From an uncultured Gammaproteobacteria bacterium (GTDB lineage: Bacteria > Patescibacteriota > Patescibacteriia > Patescibacteriales > UBA12465), in contig CAZMYU010000001.1 in assembly GCA_964570655.1 (NCBI GenBank), forward strand, positions 65,454 to 129,453: a stretch of 64,000 nt of DNA. Reading direction: 5' to 3'. Below, piece by piece: positions 115-64,000 of this stretch (positions within the stretch are counted from its first letter, which is position 1; each line of letters starts with the position of its first letter). The position numbers and the translations under genes are program-made. The notes beneath the pieces are model-generated. The model was not told the DNA's origin, searched no databases, and saw nothing but the letters and a program-made list of their open reading frames with translations.

Positions 115-146
115 AAAAAACCAGCTCATTTAAAGCTGGTTTTTAA
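115..146. terminator. Bidirectional intrinsic terminator hairpin between convergent genes
   Basis: aaaaaaCCAGC-tcatttaaa-GCTGGttttt. Stem 121-125/135-139, extended by the A-run/T-run. Confidence 0.6.
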
Positions 147-157
147 AATTTTAAAAA

Positions 158-727
158 TTATTTCCTCAGACTAATCTCGTAAGCCATTTGTTCAATTTTG
201 CGCAAATTGGTGCGCGCCTGATCATATTTGGTGCGCATATAACCGGTGAGATCAAACTCTACTAAATATCCCAAAATTTCATTAATAAGTTCTTGGACAG
301 TAAAAACAGTTTTAAAATTTTTCTTAGCGGCTTCATTGGTAGCATAACGCAAGAGCTCGCCAGTAAAATCACAAAGTCCTCCTAGGTAGGCTCCATGCGG
401 TAAATCTAGGCCTTTGAAAAAATCTATTTTTTCTTTTTGCAAATAAGCCGACAAAAGTCGAGCCTCCGCATATTCTTCTAGAGCGGCAATATAGGAACCC
501 TCTTTTTCCAAGCGCTTCACCCCAAAACGTTTATTTAAATCTTTGAGTTTGGCCTCTAATTCTTTGAACTTGGCTGAGATAGATGACAAGTCGCCCCGAT
601 GCAAAGAAAAAATTATTCGCTTCGAATCGTACAAAATATTATTAGCAGCTGCACCAATTTGCCGTCGCTCCCCCTCACCCTGACTATAATCCTTCTTGAG
701 TTTCGCAAAAAATTTCTTGTTAATCAT
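158..727 (-). CDS. Translin-family (COG2178-like) protein
   Basis: Track ORF 158-772. ATG at 727 (MINKKFF..) avoids overlap with the upstream stop at 747. Helical protein with the YLGGLCDFTGELLRYA motif, which resembles the translin GEL.R signature. Confidence 0.55.
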   Translation of the reverse strand: MINKKFFAKLKKDYSQGEGERRQIGAAANNILYDSKRIIFSLHRGDLSSISAKFKELEAKLKDLNKRFGVKRLEKEGSYIAALEEYAEARLLSAYLQKEKIDFFKGLDLPHGAYLGGLCDFTGELLRYATNEAAKKNFKTVFTVQELINEILGYLVEFDLTGYMRTKYDQARTNLRKIEQMAYEISLRK

Positions 728-746
728 AAAAATTAATAATTTTATT

Positions 747-3700: not shown

Positions 3701-3770
3701 CCTGAGGGCTATCATCATCGCCGCCAGGTTTCTTTTTGAGTAAACTAGAAATGGAATCAAAACCAGCCAT
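747..3770 (-). CDS. pilB: Tandem (duplicated) type IV pilus / type II secretion ATPase PilB/GspE
   Basis: 1007-aa ORF with a GspE_N-like N-terminus and two full ATPase modules in one frame. Walker A GPTGSGKTTT occurs twice (nt ~2797-2826 and ~1471-1503). Also paired: VIMVGEIRD/VMMIGEIRD, TGHLVLSTLHTN/TGHLVLSTIHAN, and Zn motifs CPHC..CDDC / CPNC..CSEC. Confidence 0.9.
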   Translation of the reverse strand: MAGFDSISSLLKKKPGGDDDSPQGLLLAKEDELRLKQIEEETEVQAGVLGFDYINLFSFPISPEALSLISENDAREMHAVCFYYDGENIRIGTTKEPSTALKKLVVDLDAKHFTKSRWYLISENSFNSALEEYKILPKIIKYEGGVEIKEEDLEKFSQSIADYRKLRDQINNVNISDIITLILATALKTDASDIHIEAEAAAVVVRLRIDGVLQEAATINKNQWRKIVSRLKILAGVKINVNDQPQDGRFSIFLKSEKIDVRTSFLPTAFGESVVMRLLRSKTAGLPFDDLGLRPGPLAILIRELDRPNGLILTTGPTGSGKTTTLYAVLKRLNKPGTKIITLEDPIEYQLKGISQSQIQTDKGYTFAEGLRSILRQDPNVIMVGEIRDLETAEIAIQSSLTGHLVLSTLHTNDAAGVIPRLIDMGVKPYFLVPAINAVLGQRLVRKLCPHCKVEKELSEEDRDRVNRILAVISPKSGVEVPATLPAFYSAGSGCDDCNGTGYKGRLGIYEVFTMDDKIKKLTIDSAPAFEILRQAIENGMITMLQDGVLKAVEGITSLEEVYRVAGDFDYVDALYDLVVSKVMGRGVKLSKADLSASKALMGKPEEIAKIIKAASAPELLKTIFALAISSRAGDIHIDPSELEVKVRFRIDGILYDMFSVSPDHYLPVLGEVKILSGFETNVKQAAMDGRFSVFMDKNKIDCRVSIISGGYGETIVIRLLADEANALKMSDLGIEDYSLLALQEAIKKTKGLILVTGPTGSGKTTTLYSLLKVLNKPEVKIITVEDPIEYQVKGVMQTQINASQGYTFALALRSLLRQNPNVMMIGEIRDEETAKIAIEAALTGHLVLSTIHANSASSAISRFFGLGVDRALLANSIESSVGQRLARRICPNCRAEEKISEADLKRVQEILASIKNEQVKIPKELKFYRGTGCSECNNLGFKDRMGLYEVINPVIEVRKAIQNAQLTDAEIEDIAVKNGMVTMIQDGVLKALKGETTISEVFRVCD

Positions 3771-3773
3771 AAA

Positions 3774-4847
3774 TTATTTCTTGGCAGTCGACCACCGCAC
3801 GTCTTTGTTTCTCAGACGAGGAAGAAGGCGCTCCAATTTGCTCATACCTCCTGGGCCAATCAAACGTAAAAATAATCCTGTCCAAGCACTAATTTGAAAA
3901 ACGGTAATCAGTGATCCGGCCAAAACCACAAAGAGAGCCAAAACTATTATGCCAATTATGAAGACTCCCCAAAAAGCCGCAAACGAAAATAATTGGAAAA
4001 AAGAAGTCGCTAAAATAATAAAAGGAATGGCCAAAACAGCACAAGCAATAAAAACAGCAATGGTGGCCAAGAAACTAATCACAAACAAAATAATCGCCAT
4101 CTCCAAACTAATCAACCAATTCTTTTTAAACAATGAAAAACCAGACCGCAAGGCCGAACCAAAATCTTCTTTTTTGAGGGTCACATAAGCCAAGGCATAT
4201 TTAATAAGCAAGGAAAAAGAAATAGCCGTTGGAATGAGAATTATAAACAAAATCAAATAAATCCCCAAACTCAGAGCCTGACTACCAAAAATGAAAATGA
4301 TCGGCAAGCCAACAATTAGCACTAGCAAACTAACCACAGCCTTGCTAATAATATTGAGACCCAAGGAAGTCCAAAAATAAGGCTGAGAACTTTTCAAGCT
4401 AGAGCGCCAATTGAGATTGTCTTCCTGGCCCTTGATCACCTTGTCAGTATCAGCAATTAGAGTAATCTGAGAAGAAACCGCTAGCCACAACAAGAAGAAA
4501 CCAATAATCATAGTGCCCAAAAAGATGAGCAGTACCGCCAGACCAGTTAGGGCATTATATTTGAACAATTGATAAAAACCAGTAAAAAATCCTCCGCCCA
4601 AAACACCTTGGACCCAGATTTGATCAAAGCTTAGCAACCACTTTAATAATTTTTCCCGACTAGTGGCGGAACTCAGAATTTGGTATTCAGCCCCCAAACT
4701 GAGAATTGAAGCAAAAATACCAAAAAACCATAGGTACTTTTTTTGCCAGGTAATTTTCCAAGCCTGACCCAAAATTTGTCGATAAAAAAACATAAATTTT
4801 ATAGTTTCTTCGCTGGCTCCAAGTCTCAAAAAAGCGTCTTTTGACAA
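3774..4847 (-). CDS. Polytopic membrane protein, function unknown
   Basis: 357-aa ORF with about 8 hydrophobic helices. The track start is TTG at 4847; the first ATG is at 4793. The stop lies 3 nt upstream of the pilB start. Confidence 0.6.
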   Translation of the reverse strand: MSKDAFLRLGASEETIKFMFFYRQILGQAWKITWQKKYLWFFGIFASILSLGAEYQILSSATSREKLLKWLLSFDQIWVQGVLGGGFFTGFYQLFKYNALTGLAVLLIFLGTMIIGFFLLWLAVSSQITLIADTDKVIKGQEDNLNWRSSLKSSQPYFWTSLGLNIISKAVVSLLVLIVGLPIIFIFGSQALSLGIYLILFIILIPTAISFSLLIKYALAYVTLKKEDFGSALRSGFSLFKKNWLISLEMAIILFVISFLATIAVFIACAVLAIPFIILATSFFQLFSFAAFWGVFIIGIIVLALFVVLAGSLITVFQISAWTGLFLRLIGPGGMSKLERLLPRLRNKDVRWSTAKK

Positions 4848-4942
4848 GCTCCTAGGACTTGGGGTCTAACGATGATTTAAGGTTGAAAAAAAGGTATTCA
4901 TTTGCTACTATTATATCATAATTAAAACCTTAGAACAAATAT

Positions 4943-6163
4943 ATGGCCAAGATTATCAAAGATAAACAGGCAATTTCCGAACTTTTAGAGCGGGGGGTAG
5001 AAAAAATCTTTCCCAATGCCGGTCTTTTAGAAAAAAAACTAATGAGTGGTGAACGTCTCAAAATTTATTGTGGCTACGACCCCACGGCTTCCGCCCTGCA
5101 TATTGGCAATGCTATTACTCTCAACAAATTAGCGCAATTCCAAAAACTAGGCCATCAAATTATTTTTTTGATTGGTGATTTTACTTGCATGATTGGCGAC
5201 CCGACCGACAAAAAAGCGACGCGAAAACAAATGACCCGCTCAGAGGTTTTGCATAATGCCAAAGATTACCAAAGACAAGCCAGTGCTTATCTGCAATTTT
5301 CCGGCAGCAACCCGGCCAAGATAATGTACAATAGCAAATGGAATGACAAATTAAAATTTAAAGATTTGATATCCCTAGCTTCCAATTTTACTGTCCAACA
5401 AATGATCCAGCGCGATATGTTTCAAGAACGCCTCAAAGAAGAACGGCCGATTTATCTGCATGAATTTATGTATCCGCTCACCCAAGCTCATGACAGCGTC
5501 GCCATGGATGTTGATGTTGAAATCGGTGGGAACGACCAAATGTTTAATATGCTGTGTGGTCGAGATCTACTCAAGGCTCTCAAAAACAAAGAGAAATGTG
5601 TTTTGACTCTTAAATTGCTCACCGACAACGAAGGCAAAAAAATGGGCAAATCTGAGGGCAATATTGTTTTCTTAAATGAATCACCCGAGGAAATGTATGG
5701 CAAAATAATGTCCTGGCCAGACGGTACTTTGACTAATGGCTTTGAACTATGCACTTTTTTGCCTTTAGACGAGTGCCAAAGACTTCAAACCGAAGCCAAA
5801 AATAATCCTCGCAATATCAAAATGCGTTTGGCTTTTGAAATCACTAGTCTCAATCATGGTAGCCAAAAAGCTTTGTCCGCCCAAGAATATTTTATTAAAA
5901 CCGTCCAAAACAAAGAAATCCCCAGCGATATGACGACCTACAAAATGAAAGATAGCGATCGTAGTTTTTTTGATATCTTGCTAAATAGCCAATTAGTTAA
6001 AAGCAAAGGCGAGGCGCGCCGACTCATGGAGCAGCATGGCCTCAAAATAAAAATTGATGATAATGAAATAGCCTCTCTAAAGGATGGTGACCTCACCCCC
6101 AATTTTTCGACAGAAATTATCATCCAAAGAGGCAAACATCAATTCTTGAGAATTATTAAATAA
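4943..6163 (+). CDS. tyrS: Tyrosyl-tRNA synthetase
   Basis: Class I motifs: HIGN (..PTASALHIGN) and KMGKS. C-terminal S4-like domain (KSKGEARRLMEQHGLKI). Confidence 0.93.
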   Translation: MAKIIKDKQAISELLERGVEKIFPNAGLLEKKLMSGERLKIYCGYDPTASALHIGNAITLNKLAQFQKLGHQIIFLIGDFTCMIGDPTDKKATRKQMTRSEVLHNAKDYQRQASAYLQFSGSNPAKIMYNSKWNDKLKFKDLISLASNFTVQQMIQRDMFQERLKEERPIYLHEFMYPLTQAHDSVAMDVDVEIGGNDQMFNMLCGRDLLKALKNKEKCVLTLKLLTDNEGKKMGKSEGNIVFLNESPEEMYGKIMSWPDGTLTNGFELCTFLPLDECQRLQTEAKNNPRNIKMRLAFEITSLNHGSQKALSAQEYFIKTVQNKEIPSDMTTYKMKDSDRSFFDILLNSQLVKSKGEARRLMEQHGLKIKIDDNEIASLKDGDLTPNFSTEIIIQRGKHQFLRIIK

Positions 6164-6173
6164 TTTTGAGCAA

Positions 6174-7859
6174 ATGTTTTTAGAAAATCTCAAACAATTA
6201 ATCGGACAGGGGGTGTCAGAAGAATTTATTTCCTATCCTCCCAAACCAGAAATGGGCGATCTAGCCCTTAGTTTTTTTATGTCCGCCAAAAAACAAGGAC
6301 TAGAACCTCAAGCCCTAGCCCTGGGAACAGCTGAAAAACTAAGCCAGGATCCGGAAATAAACAAAATTTTTGCCAAAATCGTCGCCCTGGGTCCTTATGC
6401 TAATTTTTTTATAAACCCCGCCTATTTAGCCCAGGAAGTTTTGAGCGAAATCAAAAAAGACGGTGAGCTTTATGGTCGAAGTCGGCAAGAAAAGGACAAA
6501 AAAATAGTTATCGAATTTTCCAATGGTAATACCCACAAAGAATTCCATATTGGCCATCTCCGCAATATTTCTTTTGGCCAAGCTATTGTCAATATTTTGA
6601 ACTTCAATGGGTATCGAGCCATTCCCATCTCCTATATCAACGACTTTGGTATTCATGTCGCCAAAACTATCTGGCAATACCAAAAAGACATTAGGAAATA
6701 TAATGACTCTAGTGATCCAAAGGGATATTTACTGGGACAAATTTATGCTGAAGCTAGTAAAAACTCTAAGGATAACGAAATAGCCAAGGCGGAAATTTCT
6801 GAAACCATGAAACAAATCGAAGGTCGACGCGGGCCACTCTGGCGACTATTTAAAAAAACCAGAAGATGGAGTATCAAATATTTTGCCCAAATCTATAAAG
6901 AACTTAATTTGCATTTTCGCAAAACATTTTATGAGAGTCGAGTCATCAAACGTGGCTGGCAAATAGTCGACGAGCTGATAGCCAAAAATATTCTAATCAA
7001 AAGCCAAGGAGCTATTATTGCTGATCTCTCCAACTATAACCTAGGGGTCCTTCCGATCATTAGAAGCGATGGCACGGCTCTTTACCCGGTAGCTGATTTA
7101 GCCCTGGCAAAAGAAAAATACCAAAAATTCAAAATGGACGAATCAATCTATGTAGTCGATATTCGCCAAAGTTTATATTTTCAACAATTATTCAAAATCT
7201 TGGAATTGTCCGGACAAAAGAATGTGGCCATGCGTCAATTACCTTATGAATTTGTTTCGCTTCCCCAAGGACTCATGTCTTCTCGGGAAGGCAATGTAAT
7301 TTCCTATCATGAATTTTCTCAAACTCTCAAAGCCAAGATTTATGCCGAAACAAAATTTCGCCATCCTAATTGGCCAGAAGATCAGATTAATGATACGGCC
7401 GAAAAAATTGCTCTCGCCACTATTAAATTTGAAATGCTCAAAGTATCGCCCCAAAAAATTATCGTTTTTGATATGACCGAGGCCTTGAGATTTGATGGCT
7501 ACACGGTGGTCTATCTACTCTATACGGTCGCTCGAATTAATAGCATCTTTAGAAAAGCCAAACTCTCAGCTAAAATAAAGGGGGGATTCTTAGGCACCGA
7601 AATCGAAAAAAATCTACTCATTAAAATGGCCAAATTCCCCGAAGTCGTCAAAACCGCTGGAGCTACTTATGACCCGGCGATCATTACTCGTTATCTTTTT
7701 GAGCTCAGCCAAATTTTTAATGATTACTACAACCAGTCTCCAATCCTCAAATCAGAACCAGAGTTCCAGATGGCTCGCTTAGCCCTCCTGCAAGGAGTTT
7801 TACAAGTCCTCAAAAATGGTCTAGAGTTATTAAATATTTCAACTATTAATGAAATCTAA
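6174..7859 (+). CDS. argS: Arginyl-tRNA synthetase
   Basis: NGNTHKEFHIGHLRN HIGH region. C-terminal DALR-type anticodon-binding region (RFDGYTVVYLLYTVARINSI). Confidence 0.88.
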   Translation: MFLENLKQLIGQGVSEEFISYPPKPEMGDLALSFFMSAKKQGLEPQALALGTAEKLSQDPEINKIFAKIVALGPYANFFINPAYLAQEVLSEIKKDGELYGRSRQEKDKKIVIEFSNGNTHKEFHIGHLRNISFGQAIVNILNFNGYRAIPISYINDFGIHVAKTIWQYQKDIRKYNDSSDPKGYLLGQIYAEASKNSKDNEIAKAEISETMKQIEGRRGPLWRLFKKTRRWSIKYFAQIYKELNLHFRKTFYESRVIKRGWQIVDELIAKNILIKSQGAIIADLSNYNLGVLPIIRSDGTALYPVADLALAKEKYQKFKMDESIYVVDIRQSLYFQQLFKILELSGQKNVAMRQLPYEFVSLPQGLMSSREGNVISYHEFSQTLKAKIYAETKFRHPNWPEDQINDTAEKIALATIKFEMLKVSPQKIIVFDMTEALRFDGYTVVYLLYTVARINSIFRKAKLSAKIKGGFLGTEIEKNLLIKMAKFPEVVKTAGATYDPAIITRYLFELSQIFNDYYNQSPILKSEPEFQMARLALLQGVLQVLKNGLELLNISTINEI

Positions 7860-11251: not shown

Positions 11252-13102
11252 TTAATTCTGAGTACTAGTAGAATTATTAATCAAACCGGAAGAGCTAGAG
11301 GTAGCCGAGACACCCAGAAGACAAACCTCTTGCCAAGGGACATAATGAGAAGAAAATCTCTGGCTAACTTTGTTTTCATCAGAAGCTCCCGGTTTATAGG
11401 TAACCACATAATCAAAATAAGCATCAGCTCCATTATGCGCCTTTTCGGTGCATTTTTTTTCGCCTGGCTTCAAATCGGTCGTTTCCACAATTCTAGTTGG
11501 CGCCGGTTTTACAATATTATAAATAGTCGGCTTAGATACTTCGATCTTCCGTCCATCACTCACTCCCCAAAAATCAAAATAAATATCATTGCCAGAAATT
11601 CGCGATTGAATAATCACATAATTTCCAGTATCGTTAACAAAACGAAAATCTGGCTTGGGAATATAAATCGTCGCATCCATACCAGCCGGCTCATAATAAG
11701 CCACCCGATAAGAATGATTGCGTCGTTCAGTAATCGGAAGACCCGAATAAAGAGCGGCTCGAAAAACAGTAGTGCCAATCTGACACAAACCACCACCAAA
11801 CTCTGGGATAGTTTTGTTATCTTTAATAACTAATTCTGGCAAATAGCCAGATTTTTCATCAACATCGCCCAATACCTTGACCAAGGAAAATTCTTCCCCG
11901 GGCTTTAGCAGCGTTCCATTAACTGCGGCGGCGCCTACTTTGATATTATGGCGACGATTGGCTGGCGAACCAGCAAAATTAGAATGGCCAGTCCCGATTA
12001 TTTCACGCACCTCAAACTCATTAGGATTAATGGAATCTTCGGCCTTCACAACATTAACCAGTAAAACTAGTTTGCTTTGTCGACTCTTAGCAAAATTATC
12101 AATAATTAGATCGACGGTTTTAGCGATGTCCAAAGACAAGCCATCATTTTTGGACTGAAAGCTAGTGACCCGACCATTTTTGATTTCAAATCTAGTAATT
12201 TGCGGCTGAGAATCTATTTTGCTAGCTATTTCTGTTTTCAAATAATTTTCCAATTTGCTTCTATCAACTTTTAGCTCCACCGATTTAAAACGATCCTTGG
12301 AAAAAGACAACCAAGAAACTATAATTTTTTTATCAATTTTAAAACTCTGATTAAGAGCGCTGGTTCCGGTGGCTTGATATTCTAAACTTAGAGGGGCCAA
12401 GTCCAAAAAACTCTTGGCCAGCCCATTGGGATCAGAAATCTGACTTTTGAAAATTTCTGGCTCCACAATAGTACTTTCCAAAATTATAGGTCGATTAACA
12501 AAATCAGCCAAATTATCTTGGAGATCAGAAATAGCTGTTGGATAATCCAAAGATTCACCGGCTTGCTCTGATTTTACGCCCAGCTCCAAAATATCTTTGT
12601 CTTCTTTGATAATTTCCAGGCTCGCATTTTGCATAGTCACTTTCAAGGGATCAAACTCGCTCAGCAAGGCCTGGCTAAAAATATCTTGATCAAAATTATA
12701 AACTGGAGTCAGACGGGTACCAAAAAAATAAGCTTTTAAAACCGGCCAAAAATTAGAACCAGAATTGCCTCGACCATAACCCAGGACTAGATTAGTACTT
12801 TTGGGCTCGTCAAAGCTCAACCAATTTTCCGCCAATTCACTACCCGGAGGCCAAATTAACAATAAGGGTTTTTTGGTATCTTTGTAAAAAACGGTGACCG
12901 CCGAAAAATTATCAGCAATACGCGAGTTGATGGCGCTGGCGACCTGTGCCTGATTTAAGCCCGACAAATCTAATTCACCCAAATAAACATGCGGGTAAAC
13001 CCGACCGGCATATTCTTTTTTTAAAAAATTATAAAAACCCATGGCTGTTAACAAAATAAGCACAACAACAATGGCGATAATTAATAATATTTTCTTTCGC
13101 AT
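11252..13102 (-). CDS. VanW-domain protein (membrane-anchored, cell-wall associated)
   Basis: N-terminal TM helix. C-terminal region GGGLCQIGTTVFRAALYSGLPITERRNHSYRVAYYEPAGMDATIY is typical of VanW. Confidence 0.85.
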   Translation of the reverse strand: MRKKILLIIAIVVVLILLTAMGFYNFLKKEYAGRVYPHVYLGELDLSGLNQAQVASAINSRIADNFSAVTVFYKDTKKPLLLIWPPGSELAENWLSFDEPKSTNLVLGYGRGNSGSNFWPVLKAYFFGTRLTPVYNFDQDIFSQALLSEFDPLKVTMQNASLEIIKEDKDILELGVKSEQAGESLDYPTAISDLQDNLADFVNRPIILESTIVEPEIFKSQISDPNGLAKSFLDLAPLSLEYQATGTSALNQSFKIDKKIIVSWLSFSKDRFKSVELKVDRSKLENYLKTEIASKIDSQPQITRFEIKNGRVTSFQSKNDGLSLDIAKTVDLIIDNFAKSRQSKLVLLVNVVKAEDSINPNEFEVREIIGTGHSNFAGSPANRRHNIKVGAAAVNGTLLKPGEEFSLVKVLGDVDEKSGYLPELVIKDNKTIPEFGGGLCQIGTTVFRAALYSGLPITERRNHSYRVAYYEPAGMDATIYIPKPDFRFVNDTGNYVIIQSRISGNDIYFDFWGVSDGRKIEVSKPTIYNIVKPAPTRIVETTDLKPGEKKCTEKAHNGADAYFDYVVTYKPGASDENKVSQRFSSHYVPWQEVCLLGVSATSSSSGLINNSTSTQN

Positions 13103-13105
13103 ATT

Positions 13106-13333
13106 TTAATTTTCAGGCTGGTCAGCCTTTAATACCTCTTTTAAAATATCTTGAGCTAATTCTTGGTTGTAACTAGACAAATCACGTTGCGGATGAATAG
13201 AAAAAAAATAAACAGCCCCAACCACTAAGTCGCTGGGGGCTTTATCGGCTGGCCAATAAAAAAAACGGCCGCTGTCATCACTGAAGACCGCTTGGCCATC
13301 TCGGAGTTCATTAAATTTTAGAGAAATAGTCAT
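13106..13333 (-). CDS. Small hypothetical protein (75 aa)
   Basis: ATG at 13333 lies directly after the hsp20 stop (13335). The longer track ORF would overlap hsp20. Confidence 0.45.
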   Translation of the reverse strand: MTISLKFNELRDGQAVFSDDSGRFFYWPADKAPSDLVVGAVYFFSIHPQRDLSSYNQELAQDILKEVLKADQPEN

Positions 13334-13334
13334 A

Positions 13335-13733
13335 TCAATCTTTAGATTGGATAAAAATCTTATTGCCAGTATCCTTTTTTTTGTGCAAAACAATACTCAA
13401 AACCCCATTCTCGATATAAGCCTCAACTTTTCGATCATCAACGGCTTGAGGCAAAACGATTGACCGAGAAAATGCACCCCAATAACATTCTTGGTACAAA
13501 TAATTAACATCTCGTTGAGTGAGATCAGATTCTCTCTTGCCTTTAATGGTGAGCAAATCATTATCAAGAGCAATACTTAAATCATCAGTCCGCACCCCGG
13601 CCACTCCAGCTCTTACTATTATCTTATCATCTTCACTGTAAACATCAACCAAAAGTTCAGCCTCGTTTAAATCGGGACTAAGCCAATTATCATTACTAGG
13701 ATGCTTAATAGCTTTTTCTTGAAATAAAGGCAT
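13335..13733 (-). CDS. Hsp20/alpha-crystallin small heat-shock protein
   Basis: ACD pattern ..DLSIALDNDLLTIKGKRE..FSRSIVLPQAVDDRKVEAYIENGVLSIVLHKK. Confidence 0.9.
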   Translation of the reverse strand: MPLFQEKAIKHPSNDNWLSPDLNEAELLVDVYSEDDKIIVRAGVAGVRTDDLSIALDNDLLTIKGKRESDLTQRDVNYLYQECYWGAFSRSIVLPQAVDDRKVEAYIENGVLSIVLHKKKDTGNKIFIQSKD

Positions 13734-13744
13734 AGAGTTTAAAT

Positions 13745-13887
13745 TTTATTTAGTGCTTGCACTGCTACCATACCCTTCTTCGCCAAAGGCTACGAAGGGC
13801 ACTACTTCGCTTCTCTAAGCGTAGTGATGTTATTCTAATTGAGTGCGTGCACTACGTAGCTCAACGCGTTAGCGTTGAGCGAAGTAG
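13745..13887 (-). repeat. GC-rich multi-hairpin 3' trailer of tRNA-Lys (copy 1 of trailer repeat)
   Basis: 13773-13825 is 53/53 identical to 14135-14187. 13842-13890 is 47/49 identical to 14203-14251. Hairpins include CTCAACGC/GCGTTGAG and GCCCTTC../..GAAGGGC. Confidence 0.85.
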
Positions 13888-13960
13888 TGCGTCCAGGAGG
13901 ATTCGAACCTCCGACCATCTCCTTAAGAGGGAGCAGCTCTACCAGCTGAGCTATGGACGC
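13888..13960 (-). tRNA. tRNA-Lys (anticodon CTT)
   Basis: Cloverleaf GCGTCCA..GCTCC-CTCTTAA-GGAGA..GGAGG-TTCGAAT-CCTCC-TGGACGC-A. No encoded CCA. Confidence 0.9.
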
Positions 13961-13982
13961 TTAATTATTTTGGAACACATAG

Positions 13983-14056
13983 TAGCTGGGGAGGGACTTG
14001 AACCCTCGACCTCGACGTTATGAGTGTCGCGCTCTAACCACCTGAGCTACCCAGCC
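13983..14056 (-). tRNA. tRNA with CAT anticodon (elongator Met or Ile2/lysidine; undecided)
   Basis: GGCTGGG..CGACA-CTCATAA-CGTCG..GAGGG-TTCAAGT-CCCTC-CCCAGCT-A. It lacks the initiator features (no C1xA72, no GGG/CCC anticodon stem). Confidence 0.85.
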
Positions 14057-14248
14057 TCAATTATAATATTTTTATATAGTGCTTGCACTTCGTAGCTCAA
14101 CGCGCTAGCGTTGAGCGAAAACAACTAACTTCTGCCCTTCTTCGCCAAAGGCTACGAAGGGCACTACTTCGCTTCTCTAAGCGTAGTTACACTATTTTAA
14201 TTAGTGCGTGCACTTCGTAGCTCAACGCGCTAGCGTTGAGCGAAGTAG
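14057..14248 (-). repeat. GC-rich multi-hairpin spacer / 3' trailer of tRNA-Arg (copy 2 of trailer repeat, with an extra hairpin)
   Basis: Same unit as 13745-13887, plus an additional CTCAACGCGCTAGCGTTGAG hairpin (14086-14118). Confidence 0.85.
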
Positions 14249-14322
14249 TGCACCCAGCAGGATTTGAACCCACAACCTCTTGGTCCGAAGCCAAGCGCTC
14301 TATCCAGTTGAGCTATGAGTGC
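14249..14322 (-). tRNA. tRNA-Arg (anticodon TCG)
   Basis: GCACTCA..CTTGG-CTTCGGA-CCAAG..GTGGG-TTCAAAT-CCTGC-TGGGTGC-A. No encoded CCA. Confidence 0.9.
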
Positions 14323-17175: not shown

Positions 17176-18219
17176 TTATTCAGCCTTTTCTTTTTCTTTT
17201 ACCAAGACAATGGTTTTGGCTCGAATATCAGCCATGAGTTTAGCATTGTCTCGCAAAAATTGTTTGGCATTTTCTCGACCAGTGCCTAATTTTATCTCAT
17301 TATAAGTATAGGTAGCACCAGATTTTTTGACGATACCATATTCGCTAGCCAAATCTAACAAATCCCCTGACACCGAGATACCTTCATTGTACATAATATC
17401 AAATTCAGCCGTTCTAAAGGGAGCGGCCACTTTGTTTTTGACAATCTTGGCCTTGACTCGATTGCCGATCATCCGCTCTCCTTGTTTGATCTGAGCAAGT
17501 CGTCGCACTTCAATTCTAACTGAACAATAAAATTTCAAAGCATTGCCACCAGTGGTGGTCTCCGGACTGCCAAAGAAAACTCCAATCTTGTTTCTAATCT
17601 GATTAATAAAAATAACAATGGTTTTAGTCTTAGAAACAATGCCAGTTAATTTTCTCAGCGCCTGGCTCATTAGCCTGGCTTGCAGACCCATGTGCTGATC
17701 ACCCATATCGCCCTCAATCTCCCGCTGAGGGACTAAAGCGGCCACACTGTCTACAACTACCACATCAACAGCATTAGAACGAACCAGGGTCTCTACAATC
17801 TCCAGGGCCTGTTCACCAGTATCAGGTTGAGAAATGAGCATGTCTTTGATATTAACTCCAATTTTTTTCGCATATTCAGGATCAAGAGCGTGCTCGGCAT
17901 CCACAAAGGCGGCAATTCCACCTTTTTTTTGTACTTCTGCCACGATATGTTGAGCCAAAGTAGTTTTGCCTGAAGCCTCTGGTCCAAAAATTTCAATAAT
18001 CCGACCTCGCGGAACACCAAAAATTCCCAAGGCAATATCTAGCGACAAACAACCAGTCGAGACTACATCGACATCGGTTTTGCGCACATCACCAAACTTC
18101 ATAATAGCCCCCTCACCAAACTTATCTTTAATCTGGGTCATAGCCGCTAGAGCGGCATCATTTCTTTGACCAGAGTCTTTAGAACTCATATCAATTTTGG
18201 GTCGACTAGCTGTTTTCAT
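17176..18219 (-). CDS. recA: Recombinase RecA
   Basis: [48 protein letters not shown]. Confidence 0.97.
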
Positions 18220-18286: not shown

Positions 18287-20872
18287 CTAAGGACAATTAC
18301 CATCTGGAGTTAGCAAGGTCGAAGCTTGACCATTACAACAAGATGGATTCTCTTCACTGGCCACACAACCTGGCCCACTAGAAGGTTTAAAACAATTCTG
18401 ATAAATATCTTTGATACCCGATCCAGCCTGAGCCGAATAATTAATAGCTTCATCAAATAGAGAATGATTAATAGTGGCTCTAGTCATATCATAACGACCA
18501 TCAACTGGCGACAAATCAATATTTTGACTAGTAATCCAATAACCCACCGGCTGATTAGTTTTGTTGAACAAATTAATCATTTTATGATCAACAGTACTAG
18601 TACCACTAGGCGTTTTGATGCTCCCAGTTCTGAGAGTACTTTGCATCATCATTTTATTAAAATCAATAATAATTGGATTGCTGAGATCAACATTGCCCAA
18701 TCCGGGAGCCGGCACAATATTAGTAATCTGCGGAGCGCTAGCTTCTAATCTGTCGGTTACAAAAAATGAAAAACGATACGAATCTTTAAAATTAGGATTG
18801 CGAACATTTTCGTCATAAAAACTAAGTGGTCCATCACTACTTTCATCTCGATTACCATTCAAAGAGTTGAAAGCTGCATCGACTATTCCAGCCGTCAGGG
18901 GTTTAAGGGCCAAGGGATAATTTTTGTTAGCCGAATTTTGGCAGACCTTGCTAGCCCCGCAAGAATTATAAGGAGCAAAAGCCGAACAATCGCCACTGCT
19001 CGTACAAGGATTAAGAGCGGCCGCGACCAACTCAACTTGCAAATGAGCACTGGGCGGCAAACAATAAATTTTTTCACCACAACCATTCATGCCACATTCC
19101 GTAGTGCTTTGAAATTCTAAAGTTCGATAATTATTAGAAATTAGCCAACGCCCAGCTACTGGAGCATTATTGTCAGCTAAGTTTATAACTCGAATAGTGT
19201 TTTTCACCTCATCCGAACTACCGGACACGGTCATCGGATTAATAGGTTCGCTAAAATTGATTTGAATAATCGAATTCATGGGCTTGTCTTGTTTGTCGCC
19301 CACCGTAACACTAATTTTTTCGTCCTGTCCGCCAGCCATACCGGAGACCGCAATATTGTTAGAATTATTGGTTGCCAAAACCAAGTTGTTTCCAGCTTCT
19401 CCACTAGCCTTGAAACGGATAATAGCCTTACTAGACTTGCTAGAAGCTTCAATATCATCCCGACCACTTAGAACCGAGGCAATATTATCAGCCTGATCAT
19501 TCAAATTAGTGGCCCGCAAAATTTCATAAGCCCCAGCCGCACTAGCCACAAAAGTATAGACCGATTGACCAATACTAATATTGTCAGCTCTAATTTCTGG
19601 ATTGACTTCAATCGACCAAGAATTACCAGCGGTGGGCGTGAAACCATCAAACTTAACTAGAAAATAACCAGGAAAATTAACTTCACCATTATTAATATTG
19701 AAAATACCCAGTGAGCTATCTGAAAATAATTGAGCTCGATTACCACTCAAAATAGTCACCTTAAAAGATTCGGTCGATCCATGGTAATCTCTATCCATCG
19801 TTACTTTCAAAGAATTTGGCCAACCCTGACTGCTGGGGGGATTATTGGCGACTGATTTCAAAGTAGCTGCCTGAAAAGTTTGCGGTAAAGACAAAACCGT
19901 AAATGATCCCATGGCTGATTTAGCTGACTGTAAACTCTCGGTTTTATCAGCCTGATTATCAGGTTCTGGGAAAATTCCCGCGCTCAAAACCTGAGGTGGG
20001 GTCAAATCTATTTTGTTATCAATCGCAAATTCCCAAGCCAAATAATCAGAACTACAAGTGCTAAACATAGAACTATTATCAGCTTTTTTTATTTCGCTAG
20101 TTAAACGCACCGTAAACCACACCCCATCACTAGTGACCGGAAAATACCCAGGCAGAGATATAATCAAAGTCTTGTTGTCTTTTTGATTAACCAAAGCATC
20201 TTTAATATTAGTAGCCTCTTTATCGCCAATAGTTGACTCATAAATCTTGACACTAGCCGGATTAATTTTTTGACAATTACTGGTATTATCACAAGCACAG
20301 GCTGTGCCACTATCATTGACACAAATAGTATCCAATTTCAATTCTTCTTTGAAAGTAATCAGGATGGCGGTATTTTTGGCAATGCCTTTTTGACCAGGCT
20401 CAGGATAAACCGAATCAACCGAGCAAGATCCCAGGGCTCCTAGCCCTAAGCCCGGATTGATATTTTTGCCACCACTGCCATTATCAATATCGCCACCATT
20501 ACCAGAGGCCCTCATCAAACGATTCAAAATAAAAAAGGTAATCCCCCAGGCTGACAAAATAATTAATAGACCAATGATTCCATTGCGCAAAACTTTTTTG
20601 GCTTCAGTGATTTTTTCTTCATTGCCATTTGAGGTCATCCATTTAAACCCAGCAATCAAAATAAAAATTACCGCAATCGCCCCCAAAAACATCATGGCAA
20701 TATTTACAATTCTAGACACAATTCTCAGGGGATTATCACTACTAAGTTGGATAACGTTATTTATTTCATTAAGCCCCACATCTTGAGCCAAAGCAATTTT
20801 GCCAAACAAAAATAAGCCCACGGCTAACAAAGGGAAAAACATGGCTTTAATTAAGCGCTGATTTCTAAACAT
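18287..20872 (-). CDS. Large secreted/surface protein with pilin-like (VirB2/TrbC-type topology) N-terminal module
   Basis: 861 aa. Signal peptide (..GKIALAQD), two hydrophobic helices flanking WMTSNGNEEKITEAKK, a Gly-rich linker, a long S/T/N-rich beta-type region, and a Cys-rich C-terminus (..CCNGQASTLLTPDGNCP). Confidence 0.8.
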   Translation of the reverse strand: MFRNQRLIKAMFFPLLAVGLFLFGKIALAQDVGLNEINNVIQLSSDNPLRIVSRIVNIAMMFLGAIAVIFILIAGFKWMTSNGNEEKITEAKKVLRNGIIGLLIILSAWGITFFILNRLMRASGNGGDIDNGSGGKNINPGLGLGALGSCSVDSVYPEPGQKGIAKNTAILITFKEELKLDTICVNDSGTACACDNTSNCQKINPASVKIYESTIGDKEATNIKDALVNQKDNKTLIISLPGYFPVTSDGVWFTVRLTSEIKKADNSSMFSTCSSDYLAWEFAIDNKIDLTPPQVLSAGIFPEPDNQADKTESLQSAKSAMGSFTVLSLPQTFQAATLKSVANNPPSSQGWPNSLKVTMDRDYHGSTESFKVTILSGNRAQLFSDSSLGIFNINNGEVNFPGYFLVKFDGFTPTAGNSWSIEVNPEIRADNISIGQSVYTFVASAAGAYEILRATNLNDQADNIASVLSGRDDIEASSKSSKAIIRFKASGEAGNNLVLATNNSNNIAVSGMAGGQDEKISVTVGDKQDKPMNSIIQINFSEPINPMTVSGSSDEVKNTIRVINLADNNAPVAGRWLISNNYRTLEFQSTTECGMNGCGEKIYCLPPSAHLQVELVAAALNPCTSSGDCSAFAPYNSCGASKVCQNSANKNYPLALKPLTAGIVDAAFNSLNGNRDESSDGPLSFYDENVRNPNFKDSYRFSFFVTDRLEASAPQITNIVPAPGLGNVDLSNPIIIDFNKMMMQSTLRTGSIKTPSGTSTVDHKMINLFNKTNQPVGYWITSQNIDLSPVDGRYDMTRATINHSLFDEAINYSAQAGSGIKDIYQNCFKPSSGPGCVASEENPSCCNGQASTLLTPDGNCP

Positions 20873-35261: not shown

Positions 35262-35334
35262 AGCGGGTAAGGGGAATCGAACCCCTCTCTCCAGCTTGGA
35301 AGGCTAGCATAATAAACCACTATACGATACCCGC
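35262..35334 (-). tRNA. tRNA-Gly (anticodon TCC)
   Basis: GCGGGTA..CTAGC-CTTCCAA-GCTGG..AGGGG-TTCGATT-CCCCT-TACCCGC-T. Weak D-stem. No CCA. Confidence 0.85.
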
Positions 35335-35415
35335 TTTCATCCCGTTACACGGGACGAATTAAAAATTAATAATTAATAATTAAAAATTTCTAATTTTTCA
35401 TTGTTAATTGTTAAT

Positions 35416-35452
35416 TTCCTAATCGGCTTTTTATCAAAAGCCGATTAGGAAA
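35416..35452. other. Hairpin immediately 3' of tRNA-Leu
   Basis: CCTAATCGGCTTTT-tatc-AAAAGCCGATTAGG. Confidence 0.6.
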
Positions 35453-35454
35453 AG

Positions 35455-35538
35455 TGCCGCGGGAGGGAATCGAACCCTCACGATATCGCTATCACAGGAT
35501 TTTAAGTCCAGCGCGTCTACCAGTTCCGCCACCGCGGC
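35455..35538 (-). tRNA. tRNA-Leu (anticodon TAA), long variable arm
   Basis: GCCGCGG..CTGGA-CTTAAAA-TCCTG-(variable arm TGATAGCGATATCG)-GAGGG-TTCGATT-CCCTC-CCGCGGC-A. Confidence 0.9.
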
Positions 35539-36006: not shown

Positions 36007-36392
36007 TGGTGGAGATGATGGGATTTGAACCCATGTCTAATAAGATCAAAAAAATAGTTCTACAAAAAATAGTTCGATTTGATATTTAACGATTTTCTAG
36101 AAACCGAACAAAAGCGAAAATCGCTAGCCGACTTTGTTTAGATTTCAAAGAGTCAGCGCCCTTGAAATCGATCTCCATAAAATGACACCACTTTAGCTCT
36201 ATGGAGCCTCAGGCCAAGTGATGGTAGCGGCTATTTAAGCGGCTACGGTCGCCATGGCTGGAACCTTCCATGAGAAGGCCAACTTAGACGCAAAGTTTTT
36301 GACATTTTTCAATGTGGATCAGTTTTACGCGGATAATCCAGCGCGTTTTGCGTATTTTTTTGATGAACTCATTATCGAAACCTGTCATCCCC
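36007..36392 (-). ncRNA. ssrA: tmRNA (SsrA)
   Basis: 5' GGGGATGACAGGTTTCGA.. and 3' ..GGGTTCAAATCCCATCATCTCCACCA. Acceptor has G3:U70. Lies 61 nt downstream of smpB on the same strand. Confidence 0.88.
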
Positions 36393-59190: not shown

Positions 59191-60504
59191 ATGTCAATTA
59201 ATTTAAACTTTTTACAGAACAAAAAAATAGCCCTTCTGGGACTAGGCCTCGAAAACCTGGCCTTATTGTCATATCTCACCAAAAACAAAATTTCCGCCGT
59301 AATTACTATCTGTGATGCTCGCTCAAGCGAAGAACTGGGGAGTCGAATTAGTGAACTGCAAAAAAATTCACAGATCAAGTGGCAGCTCGGCAAAAGTTTC
59401 AATAAAAATTTGGATAAATTTGATATTTTACTACGCTCCCCGGGCTGGCCAATTTTTTGCCCTGGAATTCAAGAGGCTCTCAGGGCCGGAACTATTCTTT
59501 CTAGCCCGATGAATTTGTTTTTTATGCTCGCCCCGACCAAAAATATTATTGGCGTCACCGGCACCAAGGGCAAAGGCACCACTAGTAGTTTGATCTACCA
59601 AATTTTACACGACGCTAAGCGGGCGGTCTTCTTGGGTGGCAATATTGGCACCGCTCCTTTTAGTTTTTTAGAAAAATTATCAGCCAAGTCCTGGGTAGTT
59701 TTGGAATTATCTAGTTTTCAATTAGAAGACCTACAATTTTCTCCTCATATTGCCGTGATCACCAATATTTATCCCGAACATTTGAAACCAGCTGATCCTT
59801 TAAACCCTAATTTTCATGCTAATTTGAAATTATACATTAAGGCCAAAAAAAATATTGCCAGCCACCAAACAGCCAACGATTATTTGGTGATTAATAAAAA
59901 ATTAAAATTGAAAGCTGGCCAAGGACGCCGACTAATTTTTACTAAATCCACTAGCCCCAGCAATTTGGCGGGCAATTACAACCAAGAAAATGTCGCCGCT
60001 GCCGAAATGGTCGCCAAAATTTTGAAAATCAATTCTAAACTCACCAAAAAAGCTATCAAAAATTTTAAAGGCTTAGAACATCGCCTCGAAAAAGTCATTA
60101 CTAAACAAGATCGAACTTTTTATGATAATAGTTTTGCCACTACTCCCGAAAGCACTATCTTAGATCTCGAATCTTTTAAAAGCCCAATTATTCTCCTAGC
60201 CGGTGGAGCCGATAAAGGTGCTGATTTTAAAAATCTAGCCAAGGCCATCAAAAATAAAGTAAAGTTTTTAATCTTATTAAAAGGTAGCGGGACCATCCGA
60301 CTCAAAAAAGACCTGCTCAAAATAAATTTTCCCAAAAACAAACTAGCAGAAGTTGCTAGTATGGAGCTGGCGGTCAAAACTGCCAAAAAAAATTCGGCTC
60401 CAGGTGATATAATCTTGCTATCCACGGGTTGTGCTAGTTTTGGAATGTTTAAAAACTATAAAGAACGAGGAAATTTGTTTAAAAAATATGCCCAAGCTCA
60501 ATAA
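59191..60504 (+). CDS. murD: UDP-N-acetylmuramoylalanine--D-glutamate ligase
   Basis: GVTGTKGKGTTSSL, NIYPEHL, GLEHRLE, ..STGCASFGMF. Confidence 0.9.
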   Translation: MSINLNFLQNKKIALLGLGLENLALLSYLTKNKISAVITICDARSSEELGSRISELQKNSQIKWQLGKSFNKNLDKFDILLRSPGWPIFCPGIQEALRAGTILSSPMNLFFMLAPTKNIIGVTGTKGKGTTSSLIYQILHDAKRAVFLGGNIGTAPFSFLEKLSAKSWVVLELSSFQLEDLQFSPHIAVITNIYPEHLKPADPLNPNFHANLKLYIKAKKNIASHQTANDYLVINKKLKLKAGQGRRLIFTKSTSPSNLAGNYNQENVAAAEMVAKILKINSKLTKKAIKNFKGLEHRLEKVITKQDRTFYDNSFATTPESTILDLESFKSPIILLAGGADKGADFKNLAKAIKNKVKFLILLKGSGTIRLKKDLLKINFPKNKLAEVASMELAVKTAKKNSAPGDIILLSTGCASFGMFKNYKERGNLFKKYAQAQ

Positions 60505-62314: not shown

Positions 62315-63502
62315 CTAAGGTTTTTTGGCAAATCTTTTTAAAATAACTTTTTTATATTTATCTCGGCCAAGTCCTAATTCAAAATAATCCCAAAAAACAG
62401 ACGTCAACCGCTTGGATAATATTTTCTGCCTTAAATTATAAGTTTTATATTGGCTCATTGCCCCCAAATAAGAATTAATACTGACTAAAATTTTTGCCAA
62501 TATTTTTTTATTAATGTTCCCGCTTTTAAAAATATTATTAATCTTAATTATGGCCCGATAAAAATTGTTTTTAGTGCGATTTCTAATATACGCCCGACGA
62601 GTTTTAATAATTGCTCCTAAAAAATCAACTCCTTTTTGGCTGGGTTGTAAATAAATTTTTTTAGGATGAAGCTTCAAACCTAAATTGTACAAATAGTCTC
62701 TAATTTCAAAAATAACCGTTTTTAAACATTCTTTATCTTTATGAATAATAATAAAATCATCAACGTAACGGCCATAATATCCAAACTTCAGAGTTCTGGT
62801 TATAAAATGGTCAAAATCATTAAGATAAATATTGCTAAATAATTGCGAAGTCAAATTGCCAATCGGCAAGACAAACCCGACAGGAGCCTGAAACAAACTC
62901 TTATTGGCCGGCAATTTTTGCCAATCATTTCGACTACCTCTAATAACACAATTGCTCGTATAATTATGAAAAATAATTTGTTGGAGCAATCCCAAAGCTA
63001 AATCTAAATTAAATGAACAATGGTTTTTCTCCTTCAATAAACGGCTTCTAATTTTGTCATAAAGTTTTTGGTGATTAATGCTCATAAAATAACCAGCCAA
63101 ATCTAATTTTAGAATAAAACAATTTTGTTGATAATTATTGGAACCAGAACGGATAAAATGAGAAATTCTTTTAATTCCGTAGGTTGTTCCTCTCCCCACC
63201 CGACAACTATAACTATCATTAATAAAATGAGCCTCAAATATAGGATTAATGTAGTTAAAAACCAAATGATGGACTATCCTATCCCTAAAAGGCGAAGCGA
63301 TAATTTCTCGTTGAACTGGATCAAACACGACAAAGGCTACGCTTCGGCCGATTTGATAAGTGCCGTTTTTTAAATCATAATAAAGCTCAAATAAGTTTTG
63401 CTCATAATTGATTTCAAACTCTAGAGCATTAACACTATTTCGCTTATTGGCTCGAGCATCGTAATAAGCCCGAAAAAGATCAATTAAAAGTTGGTCGCTC
63501 AT
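62315..63502 (-). CDS. Diversity-generating retroelement (DGR) reverse transcriptase
   Basis: YVDDFII catalytic motif plus DGR-clade hallmarks NDSYSCRVGRGT and LPIGNLTSQLFSNIYLNDFD. 395 aa. Confidence 0.9.
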   Translation of the reverse strand: MSDQLLIDLFRAYYDARANKRNSVNALEFEINYEQNLFELYYDLKNGTYQIGRSVAFVVFDPVQREIIASPFRDRIVHHLVFNYINPIFEAHFINDSYSCRVGRGTTYGIKRISHFIRSGSNNYQQNCFILKLDLAGYFMSINHQKLYDKIRSRLLKEKNHCSFNLDLALGLLQQIIFHNYTSNCVIRGSRNDWQKLPANKSLFQAPVGFVLPIGNLTSQLFSNIYLNDFDHFITRTLKFGYYGRYVDDFIIIHKDKECLKTVIFEIRDYLYNLGLKLHPKKIYLQPSQKGVDFLGAIIKTRRAYIRNRTKNNFYRAIIKINNIFKSGNINKKILAKILVSINSYLGAMSQYKTYNLRQKILSKRLTSVFWDYFELGLGRDKYKKVILKRFAKKP

Positions 63503-63548
63503 AAAAAATTATTAAAATAAAAGAAGCCAAATAAATGACTTCTTTTGA

Positions 63549-63731
63549 CTAGTCCTTTGGGCACCGCAGGGAAAAGCCGTTGGCCCGGTTATTGGGGTTG
63601 CGATTAACCGTAGCGTTAGACGTGTTCAGGTTACGATTCCAAGCAGTATTGGCCGAGCTAACCGAAGACGACCAAAAGTTGGCGTTCGTAGTCCGATTGT
63701 TGAACGACCCATTAATATTGCGGTTGCCGGC
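63549..63731 (-). repeat. DGR template repeat (TR), non-coding copy of a C-type-lectin-fold variable region
   Basis: The minus strand reads AGNRNINGSFNNRTTNANFWSSSVSSANTAWNRNLNTSNATVNRNPNNRANGFSLRCPKD*. No start codon, and an in-frame TAA lies two codons upstream. 17 of 60 codons are AAY. The stretch is GC-enriched. Confidence 0.75.
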
Positions 63732-63874
63732 AATTTTTTAATAATCGCTAAACTCTTTAATTAATTTGATATTTTAATAAAAAATTAACCAAATAGCGGT
63801 TTGGCCCGCTCATTACTAAATTTTTAAATTTAGTGGATTATTGGACTAGTGAGGCACGCTCGTTTTAACCTTGG

Positions 63875-64000
63875 CTAAAACGATTCTGGCCCATTATTAT
63901 TTGCAGGTCTTTGCCAAAAACTTAATTGTCGAGAAATTGATTCAATAATTTCATTGACTTTAATAAATTTTGGCAAAGTTATTTGTTTTAAATCTTTAAT
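63875..64000 (-). CDS. 3' end of an Avd-like (DGR accessory, four-helix-bundle) ORF, truncated by the window edge
   Basis: Only open frame at the edge: ..IKDLKQITLPKFIKVNEIIESISRQLSFWQRPANNNGPESF*. TAG at 63877-63875. Its position upstream of TR-RT matches avd. Confidence 0.45.
   Translation of the reverse strand: MKDLKQITLPKFIKVNEIIESISRQLSFWQRPANNNGPESF

Follow-up and report, generated by a model that had tools for sequence, protein, structure and literature searches.

At the right edge of the 64-kb window analysed here (the whole stretch of 64,000 nucleotides), a reverse transcriptase (RT) gene stands on the minus strand beside an adenine-rich stretch that is not an open reading frame (ORF), and beyond both an ORF runs off the window. 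This locus raises the question of which kind of retroelement these parts make up and how its RNA would be organised. The initial annotation, made from the sequence alone, proposed a diversity-generating retroelement (DGR) at this edge, and each of the items that it listed was recovered. DGRs are known systems in which the tip of a surface protein is altered through error-prone reverse transcription. On the minus strand the order is target gene with its variable repeat (VR), beyond the window, then avd, an RT-7-like RNA, a template repeat (TR), a hairpin and the RT gene, and this is very probably the 3' two-thirds of a chromosomal DGR of the type found in Patescibacteria (candidate phyla radiation, CPR). 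A DGR-clade RT, an adenine-loaded non-coding TR, an Avd edge ORF and a conserved structured RNA are already established here. Since DGRs are known to abound in Patescibacteria, the element is a system of an already known sort, one more ordinary cellular DGR from a family common in ultra-small bacteria. Only the link between the RT-7 RNA and a DGR TR, together with a model of a permuted DGR RNA, might be new to specialists; the RNA itself, at 63734-63890, had not been picked up in the initial annotation. The features are as follows.

63875-64000, minus strand: 3' end of avd (last 41 codons and stop; the gene runs off the window), from alignment A8
63734-63890, minus strand: structured RNA of 157 nt related to Rfam RF03028 (RT-7), between avd and the TR, from Rfam, our own model R1, covariation and folding
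63843-63850, minus strand: strand X (ACUAGUCC) in the RT-7 linker, proposed primer-side strand, pairing with the 3' end of the TR
63836-63842, minus strand: strand X' (AAUAAUC), contiguous with X, proposed stop helix, pairing with GAUUAUU at 63746-63740
63548-63733, minus strand: TR of 186 nt, non-coding, in the frame of a Fib_succ_major/C-type-lectin C-terminus, from sequence, codon design and homology
63548-63555, minus strand: last 8 nt of the TR (GGACUAGU), partner of X, similar to the IMH* site (IMH, initiation of mutagenic homing), from helix 2 and TR/VR differences
63519-63546, minus strand: 11-bp hairpin with loop UUUAUU, then a U-run, directly after the TR, from folding and conservation in six relatives
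62315-63502, minus strand: DGR RT gene, 395 aa, from RVT_1, bRT (8ub7) and phrog_1423

The RT had been called DGR-type on its motifs, and the ORF indeed holds NDSYSCRVGRGT, LPIGNLTSQ and YVDD, so that both the motif 4 of the form [ILV]GxxxSQ and the YxDD motif of the DGR clade are present. It matches Pfam RVT_1 (E 2.8e-18) and the PHROGs family phrog_1423 'Reverse transcriptase' (E 1.3e-95). Among solved structures its closest match is bRT, the DGR enzyme of a Bordetella phage (8ub7; E 1.7e-34), which lies 25 orders of magnitude ahead of the next one, a group II maturase (6e-9). The bRT residues that contact template, dNTP or metal are K29, F66, R74, I76, D138, I181, G182, Q187 and D215/D216 (Handa et al., bioRxiv 10.1101/2023.10.23.563531), and all of them align with identical residues of the window RT, namely K20, F57, R65, I67, D134, I214, G215, Q220, D248 and D249.

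The stretch 63549-63731 (minus strand) translates as AGNRNINGSFNNRTTNANFWSSSVSSANTAWNRNLNTSNATVNRNPNNRANGFSLRCPKD followed by a stop; an in-frame TAA lies two codons upstream (63740-63738), and AAC or AAT make up 17 of the 60 codons, exactly as had been reported from the sequence. No ORF is listed in that frame. It ends 46 nt ahead of the ATG of the RT gene, and its GC content is about 0.46-0.50 against 0.25-0.40 around it. Almost all of the adenines (44 of 45) occupy codon positions 1 or 2, and a single codon (AAG) can mutate to a stop, the other 25 of the 26 variable codons being unable ever to become one. By a binomial estimate, such a scarcity of adenines at third positions has a probability of about 3e-7, which argues that this stretch, despite not being an ORF, is under reading-frame constraint, the pattern expected of a TR. 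The translation carries the FWSS...AW.R...GFS.RC C-terminus, matching PF09603 and PF07603. The variable-region pattern of C-type-lectin (CLec) type that had been proposed for this peptide agrees with a match to positions 131-185 of the 187 in PF09603 Fib_succ_major (the last 55), at E 1.9e-4 and below the gathering score. A weak tblastn match of the peptide elsewhere in the window (17509-17634, plus strand) was discarded as noise; it runs antisense to ORF 17176-18219 (minus strand).

Related loci provide the comparison that assigns a role to this stretch. The nearest RTs are 73% identical (P0002; loci L003-L005), followed by L095 (70%), L007/L008 and L096 (66%) and L097 and L098 (62%). Farther out are L001, L009 and L010 (52-53%), L002 and L011 (34%) and L012-L014 (26-30%), and a viral collection holds 80 loci with RTs 37-52% identical. 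Nearly all of some 60 loci with RTs 38-73% identical have a TR immediately 5' of the RT gene, paired with a VR. A repeat pair with one copy just upstream of the RT was present at 57 loci (RTs 34-73% identical), and at the majority of these loci 85% or more of the TR/VR mismatches fall at TR adenines; the counts are 15 of 17 in L004, 18 of 19 in L007 and 16 of 16 in L097. Between avd and RT, the intergenic DNA of the window shares 73-76% identity with that of L003/L004 and L007, and 63733-63548 aligns without large gaps to their TRs. The limits of the window TR were drawn by aligning it with the homologous TR/VR pairs in L004, L007 and L095-L098, six relatives whose TRs align with it base for base and whose VRs differ almost only at TR adenines. 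In these relatives the segment homologous to 63549-63731 is the adenine-rich copy, whereas the other copy forms the last ~180 nt of a full-length, pilin-like target ORF. The initial annotation had noted that a longer intact ORF over this segment in related genomes would make it a VR; the comparison identifies it as the TR, a non-coding adenine-rich copy next to the RT. Moreover, L003 (469-646) and L004 (1223-1403), on contigs of different samples, have an identical RT (P0002) and TR but VRs that differ at TR-adenine sites, as is expected of ongoing diversification in a population.

The edge ORF, of 41 aa inside the window (IKDLKQITLPKFIKVNEIIESISRQLSFWQRPANNNGPESF followed by a stop), had been described as Avd-like. 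It is 62-71% identical to the C-termini of 113-131-aa proteins of the relatives, which score above the cut-off of PF22296 bAvd (43.5 bits against 40, E 4.9e-11) and also match phrog_3206 'Avd protein of DGR' (E 2.4e-16). An avd gene is accordingly part of the element, with only its last 41 residues inside the window. The window Avd has a nine-residue C-terminal extension (NNNGPESF; 63875-63892, minus strand) that is absent in the relatives, and the codons of this extension share sequence with the 5' arm of the RT-7-like RNA's first hairpin.

The order target(VR)-avd-TR-RT, which had been assumed as canonical, was found in all seven close relatives. The cassette in L003/L004, L007/L008 and L095-L098 consists of a target with N_methyl and Fib_succ_major domains, bAvd, TR and RT, and L001 has the same order with a DUF1566-type target. 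All close relatives with enough flank carry one or two genes with a prepilin motif and Fib_succ_major and then a bAvd gene, which a non-coding stretch of about 400 nt separates from the RT gene. Two of them, L097 and L098, each have two pilin-like targets: the upstream one of L097 is 76% identical to the TR, with mismatches that are not adenine-specific, and the second target of L098 showed no match to the TR.

By comparison with these relatives, whose targets pass PF09603 Fib_succ_major (E 2e-29 to 4e-32), the target of the window element is probably a type IV pilin-like protein of 350-450 aa, with a prepilin N-terminal methylation motif, a Fib_succ_major tip and a VR in its last ~60 codons. 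The gene is predicted to end on the minus strand roughly 0.3-0.5 kb beyond 64000, an estimate that assumes an Avd of ~120 aa and a gap of 40-100 nt, as in L095 and L004. Up to 26 target codons may vary, which would give about 10^26 protein variants. The element thereby predicts that the tip of a type IV pilin-like protein is varied in the source organism, which would fit an episymbiont attaching to changing host surfaces. The window encodes a pilus-assembly ATPase (747-3770, minus strand), consistent with pilin-like substrates; at 1007 aa, with two T2SSE (PilB/GspE-type) stretches in one chain, it is unusually long and apparently duplicated. A separate 861-aa protein (18287-20872, minus strand), which combines a T4SS_pilin match at its N-terminus with a Big_5 Ig-like domain, may be another surface appendage protein.

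Three other explanations of the locus have to be weighed against a DGR with its target just beyond the edge. The RT could belong to another class (group II intron, retron, or the DRT/Abi defence groups) and the TR-like stretch be a coincidence, and it is true that a group II maturase (TIGR04416, E 8.7e-31) is its top match in NCBIfam, where no DGR-RT model was among the matches, that Drt2, Retron_St85_RT and Drt3a also match, and that PADLOC retron and DRT models hit it weakly (DRT at most 81 bits). All of the NCBIfam scores are nevertheless far below the curated cut-offs (107 bits against 300 for the maturase, 51 against 390 for Drt2, 49.6 against 235 for the retron model and 47 against 200 for Drt3a). 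bRT is by far the closest solved relative, an Rfam scan of the 64-kb window at gathering scores found no group II intron or retron RNA, hence neither flanking intron RNA nor an msr-msd RNA, and this RT clade is linked with adenine-biased TR/VR pairs. We regard another RT class as scarcely credible. That 63549-63731 is a dead VR left by a disrupted target gene could be argued from its missing start codon, its upstream in-frame stop and its likeness to a Fib_succ_major C-terminus. It lies, however, between avd and RT, where all relatives carry the TR, and aligns with those TRs over its full length; it is the asparagine- and adenine-rich version, with its 17 AAY codons, whereas the VRs of the relatives have lost many such adenines; and conserved RNA elements flank it on both sides. 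A dead VR is very improbable. An orphan or decayed DGR, which has kept RT, TR and Avd while its target is lost or remote, so that nothing or only a remote target would be diversified, deserves more attention. Several results speak for it and count against a complete element: there is no second copy of the TR stretch within the 64 kb at DNA or protein level, as had already been observed, and no codon-compatible protein, with a VR whose residues could be reached by changing TR adenines only, was found in the databases (best 51 of 60 codons). With the TR peptide as query, the protein search gave nothing but 29 short ORFs rich in asparagine that resemble translated TRs of other genomes, a profile of the relatives' targets had no protein of the source contig among its best 120 matches, an exhaustive search of representative proteins gave no target of the window element, the adenine-masked TR pattern had no match in metagenome or viral collections, and the scan of species-representative genomes recovered relatives only. 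Remote or multiple targets also occur among the relatives, as the second diverged targets of L097 and L098 and a distant Fib_succ_major gene in L007 illustrate. On the other hand, the catalytic and template-contact residues of the RT are intact, the TR retains its stop-free adenine design, the accessory RNA retains all helices, and in all seven close relatives the target is directly upstream of avd, a site that here is beyond the window edge. In addition, the source proteins, the exact RT among them, are database singletons from one NCBI contig of 131,622 bp, and neither best-match list contained a protein of that contig, although the library behind the second list carries no contig information. 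An orphan element is therefore unlikely in our judgement, and a DGR whose target lies just outside the window is the reading that we retain.

The part of this element that may go beyond a known system is its RNA. The 157-nt RNA between avd and the TR is, as judged from model matching, a diverged copy of Rfam RF03028 (RT-7). Its P1 hairpin (63892-63853) reaches into the end of avd; next come a single-stranded linker and a closing helix around three internal hairpins. The match covers the whole RT-7 model (positions 1-191; 56.3 bits, E ~1e-12) with all helices formed, and the full architecture (P1, linker, closing helix, internal hairpins) stands next to an RT gene, as it does for RT-7; the difference is that one long internal hairpin is shortened. 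Folding of the single sequence gives the same architecture (z = -4.4). In alignment A9, of seven close sequences, 93% of the cells are paired against 32-50% with slid partners, and 18 pairs are compensated. Our own covariance model R1 scores the window RNA at 190 bits and found only the close clade and three weak matches.

The connection of RT-7 with DGRs is provided by two loci in which it scores above the gathering threshold and adjoins a TR, L022 (2580-2774, 156.6 bits) and L021 (1961-2144, 132.4 bits): in each, RT-7 ends at the first bases of a TR with an adenine-biased VR partner. At the Rfam gathering score, no RT-7 was found in another 20 viral DGR loci. The motifs RT-1 to RT-19 were published without a function, and only RT-10 was linked to a DGR, as the spacer between TR and brt of phage BPP-1 (Weinberg et al. 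2017, PMC5737381); a full-text literature search found no paper on RT-7 by name. The association of RT-7 with a DGR TR and the covariation-supported fold would give a function to an RNA motif that was unexplained in 2017, which is a more useful result than the element itself.

Within this fold, the linker drawn as single-stranded by Rfam contains strand X, which is contiguous with strand X' of the closing helix, and the two strands have partners at the two ends of the TR. Helix 2 is formed by X and the final 8 nt of the TR; in helix 3, which closes the domain of several hairpins, X' pairs with 63746-63740, seven nt ahead of the TR. Both helices are 100% paired in the seven close sequences, helix 2 with two compensated pairs and G-U wobbles, which argue for a pairing of RNA rather than DNA. 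The sequences of X and of the TR 3' end are as follows.

Window: ACUAGUCC with GGACUAGU
Consensus of the window clade: ACUAGUCY with RGACURGU
Three close relatives: ...UCU with AGA..., the closing C-G becoming U-A
L096: AUUAGUCC with GGACUGAU, a second compensation
L022: GUAAAUUC with GAAUUUAC
L021: AUAAAUUC with GAAUUUAU
L016: GUUAAAUUC with GAACUUAAC, one mismatch

In L022, L021 and L016, the loci with genuine RT-7, the two sequences are unrelated to those of the window clade and still complementary, and L021 and L022 also have an equivalent of helix X' with a different sequence. The two-helix pattern recurs with unrelated sequences in L001/L010, L018, L021/L022, L028, L031, L041 and L082. 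Since X and X' are contiguous and their partners lie at the ends of the TR, the TR would be a loop closed by two adjacent helices, and the covariation supports a fold of this kind. The limits of TR/VR homology agree with this: in six close relatives the homology runs out where the X partner ends or at most 3 nt from there, the X partner contains those 3'-end TR/VR differences that are not at adenines, as at IMH and IMH*, and adenine substitutions reach to within 2 nt of it.

On the other side of the TR, the initial annotation had noticed a hairpin before the RT. This hairpin is real but longer than the 8 bp given: 63546-63519 forms 11 pairs, including one G-U, followed by UUUUAUUUU, with a folding z-score of -3.4. 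It is kept in six relatives (helix 6), with two compensated pairs and three pairs changed on one side only. By analogy, it could be the Avd-binding stem-loop, the 3' end (terminator) of the DGR RNA, or both. The relatives L004 (1404-1425, CUGGCGGC-UUAA-GCCGACAG) and L007 (9158-9181, CUGUCUGC-UUGUUA-GCAGACAG) have another GC-rich hairpin, of 8 bp, directly after the VR; the two differ by compensatory changes and resemble the target-recognition hairpin of Bordetella, and none was present in L095-L098.

The DGR of Bordetella phage BPP-1 (mtd-avd-TR-brt) is the natural reference for this arrangement. It shares with the window element the gene order, the RT motifs and the template and dNTP contact residues, an Avd partner, an adenine-loaded TR that encodes a tip of C-type-lectin fold (predicted for the window), an 11-bp stem-loop directly after the TR and two adjacent duplexes (proposed for the window) that clamp the TR ends. 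According to the cryo-EM structure, the spacer (Sp) segment Sp47-56 pairs with TR118-129 as the template:primer duplex; two nt on, Sp59-70 forms the 'cPRT Stop' with bases immediately 5' of the TR; after it come a small stem-loop, unpaired adenosines and stem-loops that bind protein (Handa et al., bioRxiv 10.1101/2023.10.23.563531). The two elements differ in where this accessory RNA is placed: BPP-1 has ~140 nt of it (Sp) between TR and brt, whereas the window has 46 nt there and the 157-nt RNA between avd and TR. The strand equivalent to X-X' and its hairpins are thus 3' of the TR in Bordetella and 5' of it in the window, and we infer that the two RNAs are circular permutations of the same topology. 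The targets also differ, being a phage tail fibre in BPP-1 and, to judge from the relatives, a cellular pilin-like protein here, as do the VR classes (CLec1, Mtd, against the Fib_succ_major type).

A possible course of events can be proposed from these likenesses. A single transcript would contain the RT-7-like domain, the TR and the terminal hairpin. Linker strand X (63850-63843) would pair with the last 8 nt of the TR and X' (63842-63836) with 63746-63740, which would leave the 186-nt TR as a loop between two stacked helices. If Bordetella is a guide, RT-Avd would bind the structured domain and prime cDNA synthesis at the junction of X and the TR. The TR would then be copied with misincorporation opposite adenines, synthesis would stop at the X' helix, and the cDNA would replace the VR.

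How far can this proposal be trusted? Our suggestion that RT-7 and its form in the window are the accessory RNA of a large DGR branch, a circular permutation of the Bordetella DGR RNA with X, X' and the protein-binding hairpins 5' of the TR, is tentative, and we place it slightly below an even chance. The other reading of the same RNA is that the RT-7-like domain serves regulation or stability, for example as a leader, as a processing site or as a platform for Avd, and has no role as primer or stop, while priming proceeds from 3' of the TR as in Bordetella. The hairpin 3' of the TR, with the same size (11 bp) and position as the Avd-binding stem-loop of Bordetella, fits this alternative, as do the shortness of the X duplex and the many distant loci of the clade that have no clear X/X' pattern or no RT-7 at the gathering score. 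Several observations detract from our proposal in the same way: the window RNA itself scores below the RT-7 gathering threshold (116.8 bits), and among the relatives the score falls to 39.6 bits in L004 with no match in L007; helix X' shows almost no variation among the close relatives; the steps of priming, stopping and Avd binding are all drawn by analogy; and in unbiased scans of the upstream region against the TR end the 8-bp duplexes were not significant per locus (p 0.1-0.5), so that the case for helix X is built on positional conservation and a few compensatory changes in related sequences. Against the regulatory alternative, only 46 nt separate the TR from the ATG of the RT gene, and the median of this gap in the clade is 45 nt, compared with 138 nt for the non-coding block upstream. 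A hidden RNA element in the RT 5' coding region was considered and rejected, as its first 120 nt are under no extra synonymous constraint (third-position identity 0.58 against 0.56-0.65 elsewhere in the gene). X and X' are contiguous and in the same 5'-to-3' order as Sp47-56 and Sp59-70 of Bordetella, with partners at the same two TR ends, and the same topology recurs with the unrelated sequences listed above. A purely regulatory role is quite possible on these grounds, though it is not the one we would choose.

If the permuted arrangement is true, a DGR RNA can end at a hairpin right after the TR, and the cDNA would be cis-primed from a nucleotide ~290 nt upstream of the initiation site. Rules for finding or engineering DGRs with an assumed 3' spacer would in that case overlook this branch or build it wrongly. 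In the survey by Handa et al. (bioRxiv 10.1101/2023.10.23.563531), coverage was limited to 40 nt on the upstream side of TRs and 100 nt on the downstream side, and an arrangement with the RNA on the 5' side would have escaped it. The permutation provides a testable model, in which the priming architecture of Bordetella is conserved but rearranged in a distant DGR branch.

As for its place among known DGRs, the closest named relatives of the RT come from metagenome-assembled genomes of Patescibacteria/Falkowbacteria; the nearest public RT is 73% identical, the host proteins are singletons at 90% identity, and the host is probably Patescibacteria-like. Cellular DGRs of Patescibacteria/CPR, reportedly the subject of work by Paul and colleagues in 2017, share with the window element a chromosomal location in a compact genome of low GC and the avd-TR-RT cassette, and nothing essential differs between them. 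By its features, rather than by the tree of Roux et al. (2021, PMC8144416), the element can be likened to their DGR clade 2. The same FWSS...AW.R...GFS.RC C-terminus is encoded by DGR targets of category 'd'/CLec2 (DUF1566, DUF823, Fib_succ_major), for example in the Legionella DGR (Wu et al. 2018, PMC5758913); the Legionella target is a lipoprotein, whereas the targets of the relatives have an N-terminal prepilin-type methylation motif and a pilin-like domain.

On its 3' side the RT gene converges on holA (TIGR01128, E 1e-55), which ends at 62313, with a single base between the two stops. This spacing and the lack of any terminator-like site between the RT and holA stops are as the initial annotation described; the insertion flush against a core gene that it drew from them is only a guess, because a compact genome also gives tight convergent spacing, and the one-base gap on its own is no proof of a recent insertion. 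The genes 3' of the RT vary among the relatives, being the secA region in L003, a Ham1-like gene in L095, a rolling-circle Rep and a serine recombinase in L097 and L098, and in L007 an element with Zot, Rep and a LexA-like gene plus a second Avd-RT pair. The cassette therefore moves between contexts.

Some further observations were made on these neighbourhoods. The Rep of L097 (7799-10728) and L098 (7796-10519) is of the REP_ORF2-G2P type and is found with the large serine recombinase immediately downstream of the RT gene, and the cassette may thus be carried by a mobile element. In L007 the Zot, RepSA/REP_ORF2-G2P and LexA-like genes beside the DGR (138-7618) resemble an integrated filamentous phage, and the second bAvd gene and its 331-aa RT (12426-13818) are divergently arranged. 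The databases contain dozens of asparagine-rich proteins of 60-150 aa (P0121-P0149 and many of P0296-P0416), named as FISUMP/TIGR02145 family or as hypothetical, which look like translated TRs produced as gene-calling artefacts; the many short proteins of this family in public databases should be treated with caution for this reason. Elsewhere in the window, a murI-like ORF with a GTG start overlaps the end of a murD-like ORF by 74 nt (60431-60504), and its real start is probably downstream. A tmRNA gene (36007-36392) and two small tRNA clusters (13888-14322 and 35262-35538), all on the minus strand, are ordinary.

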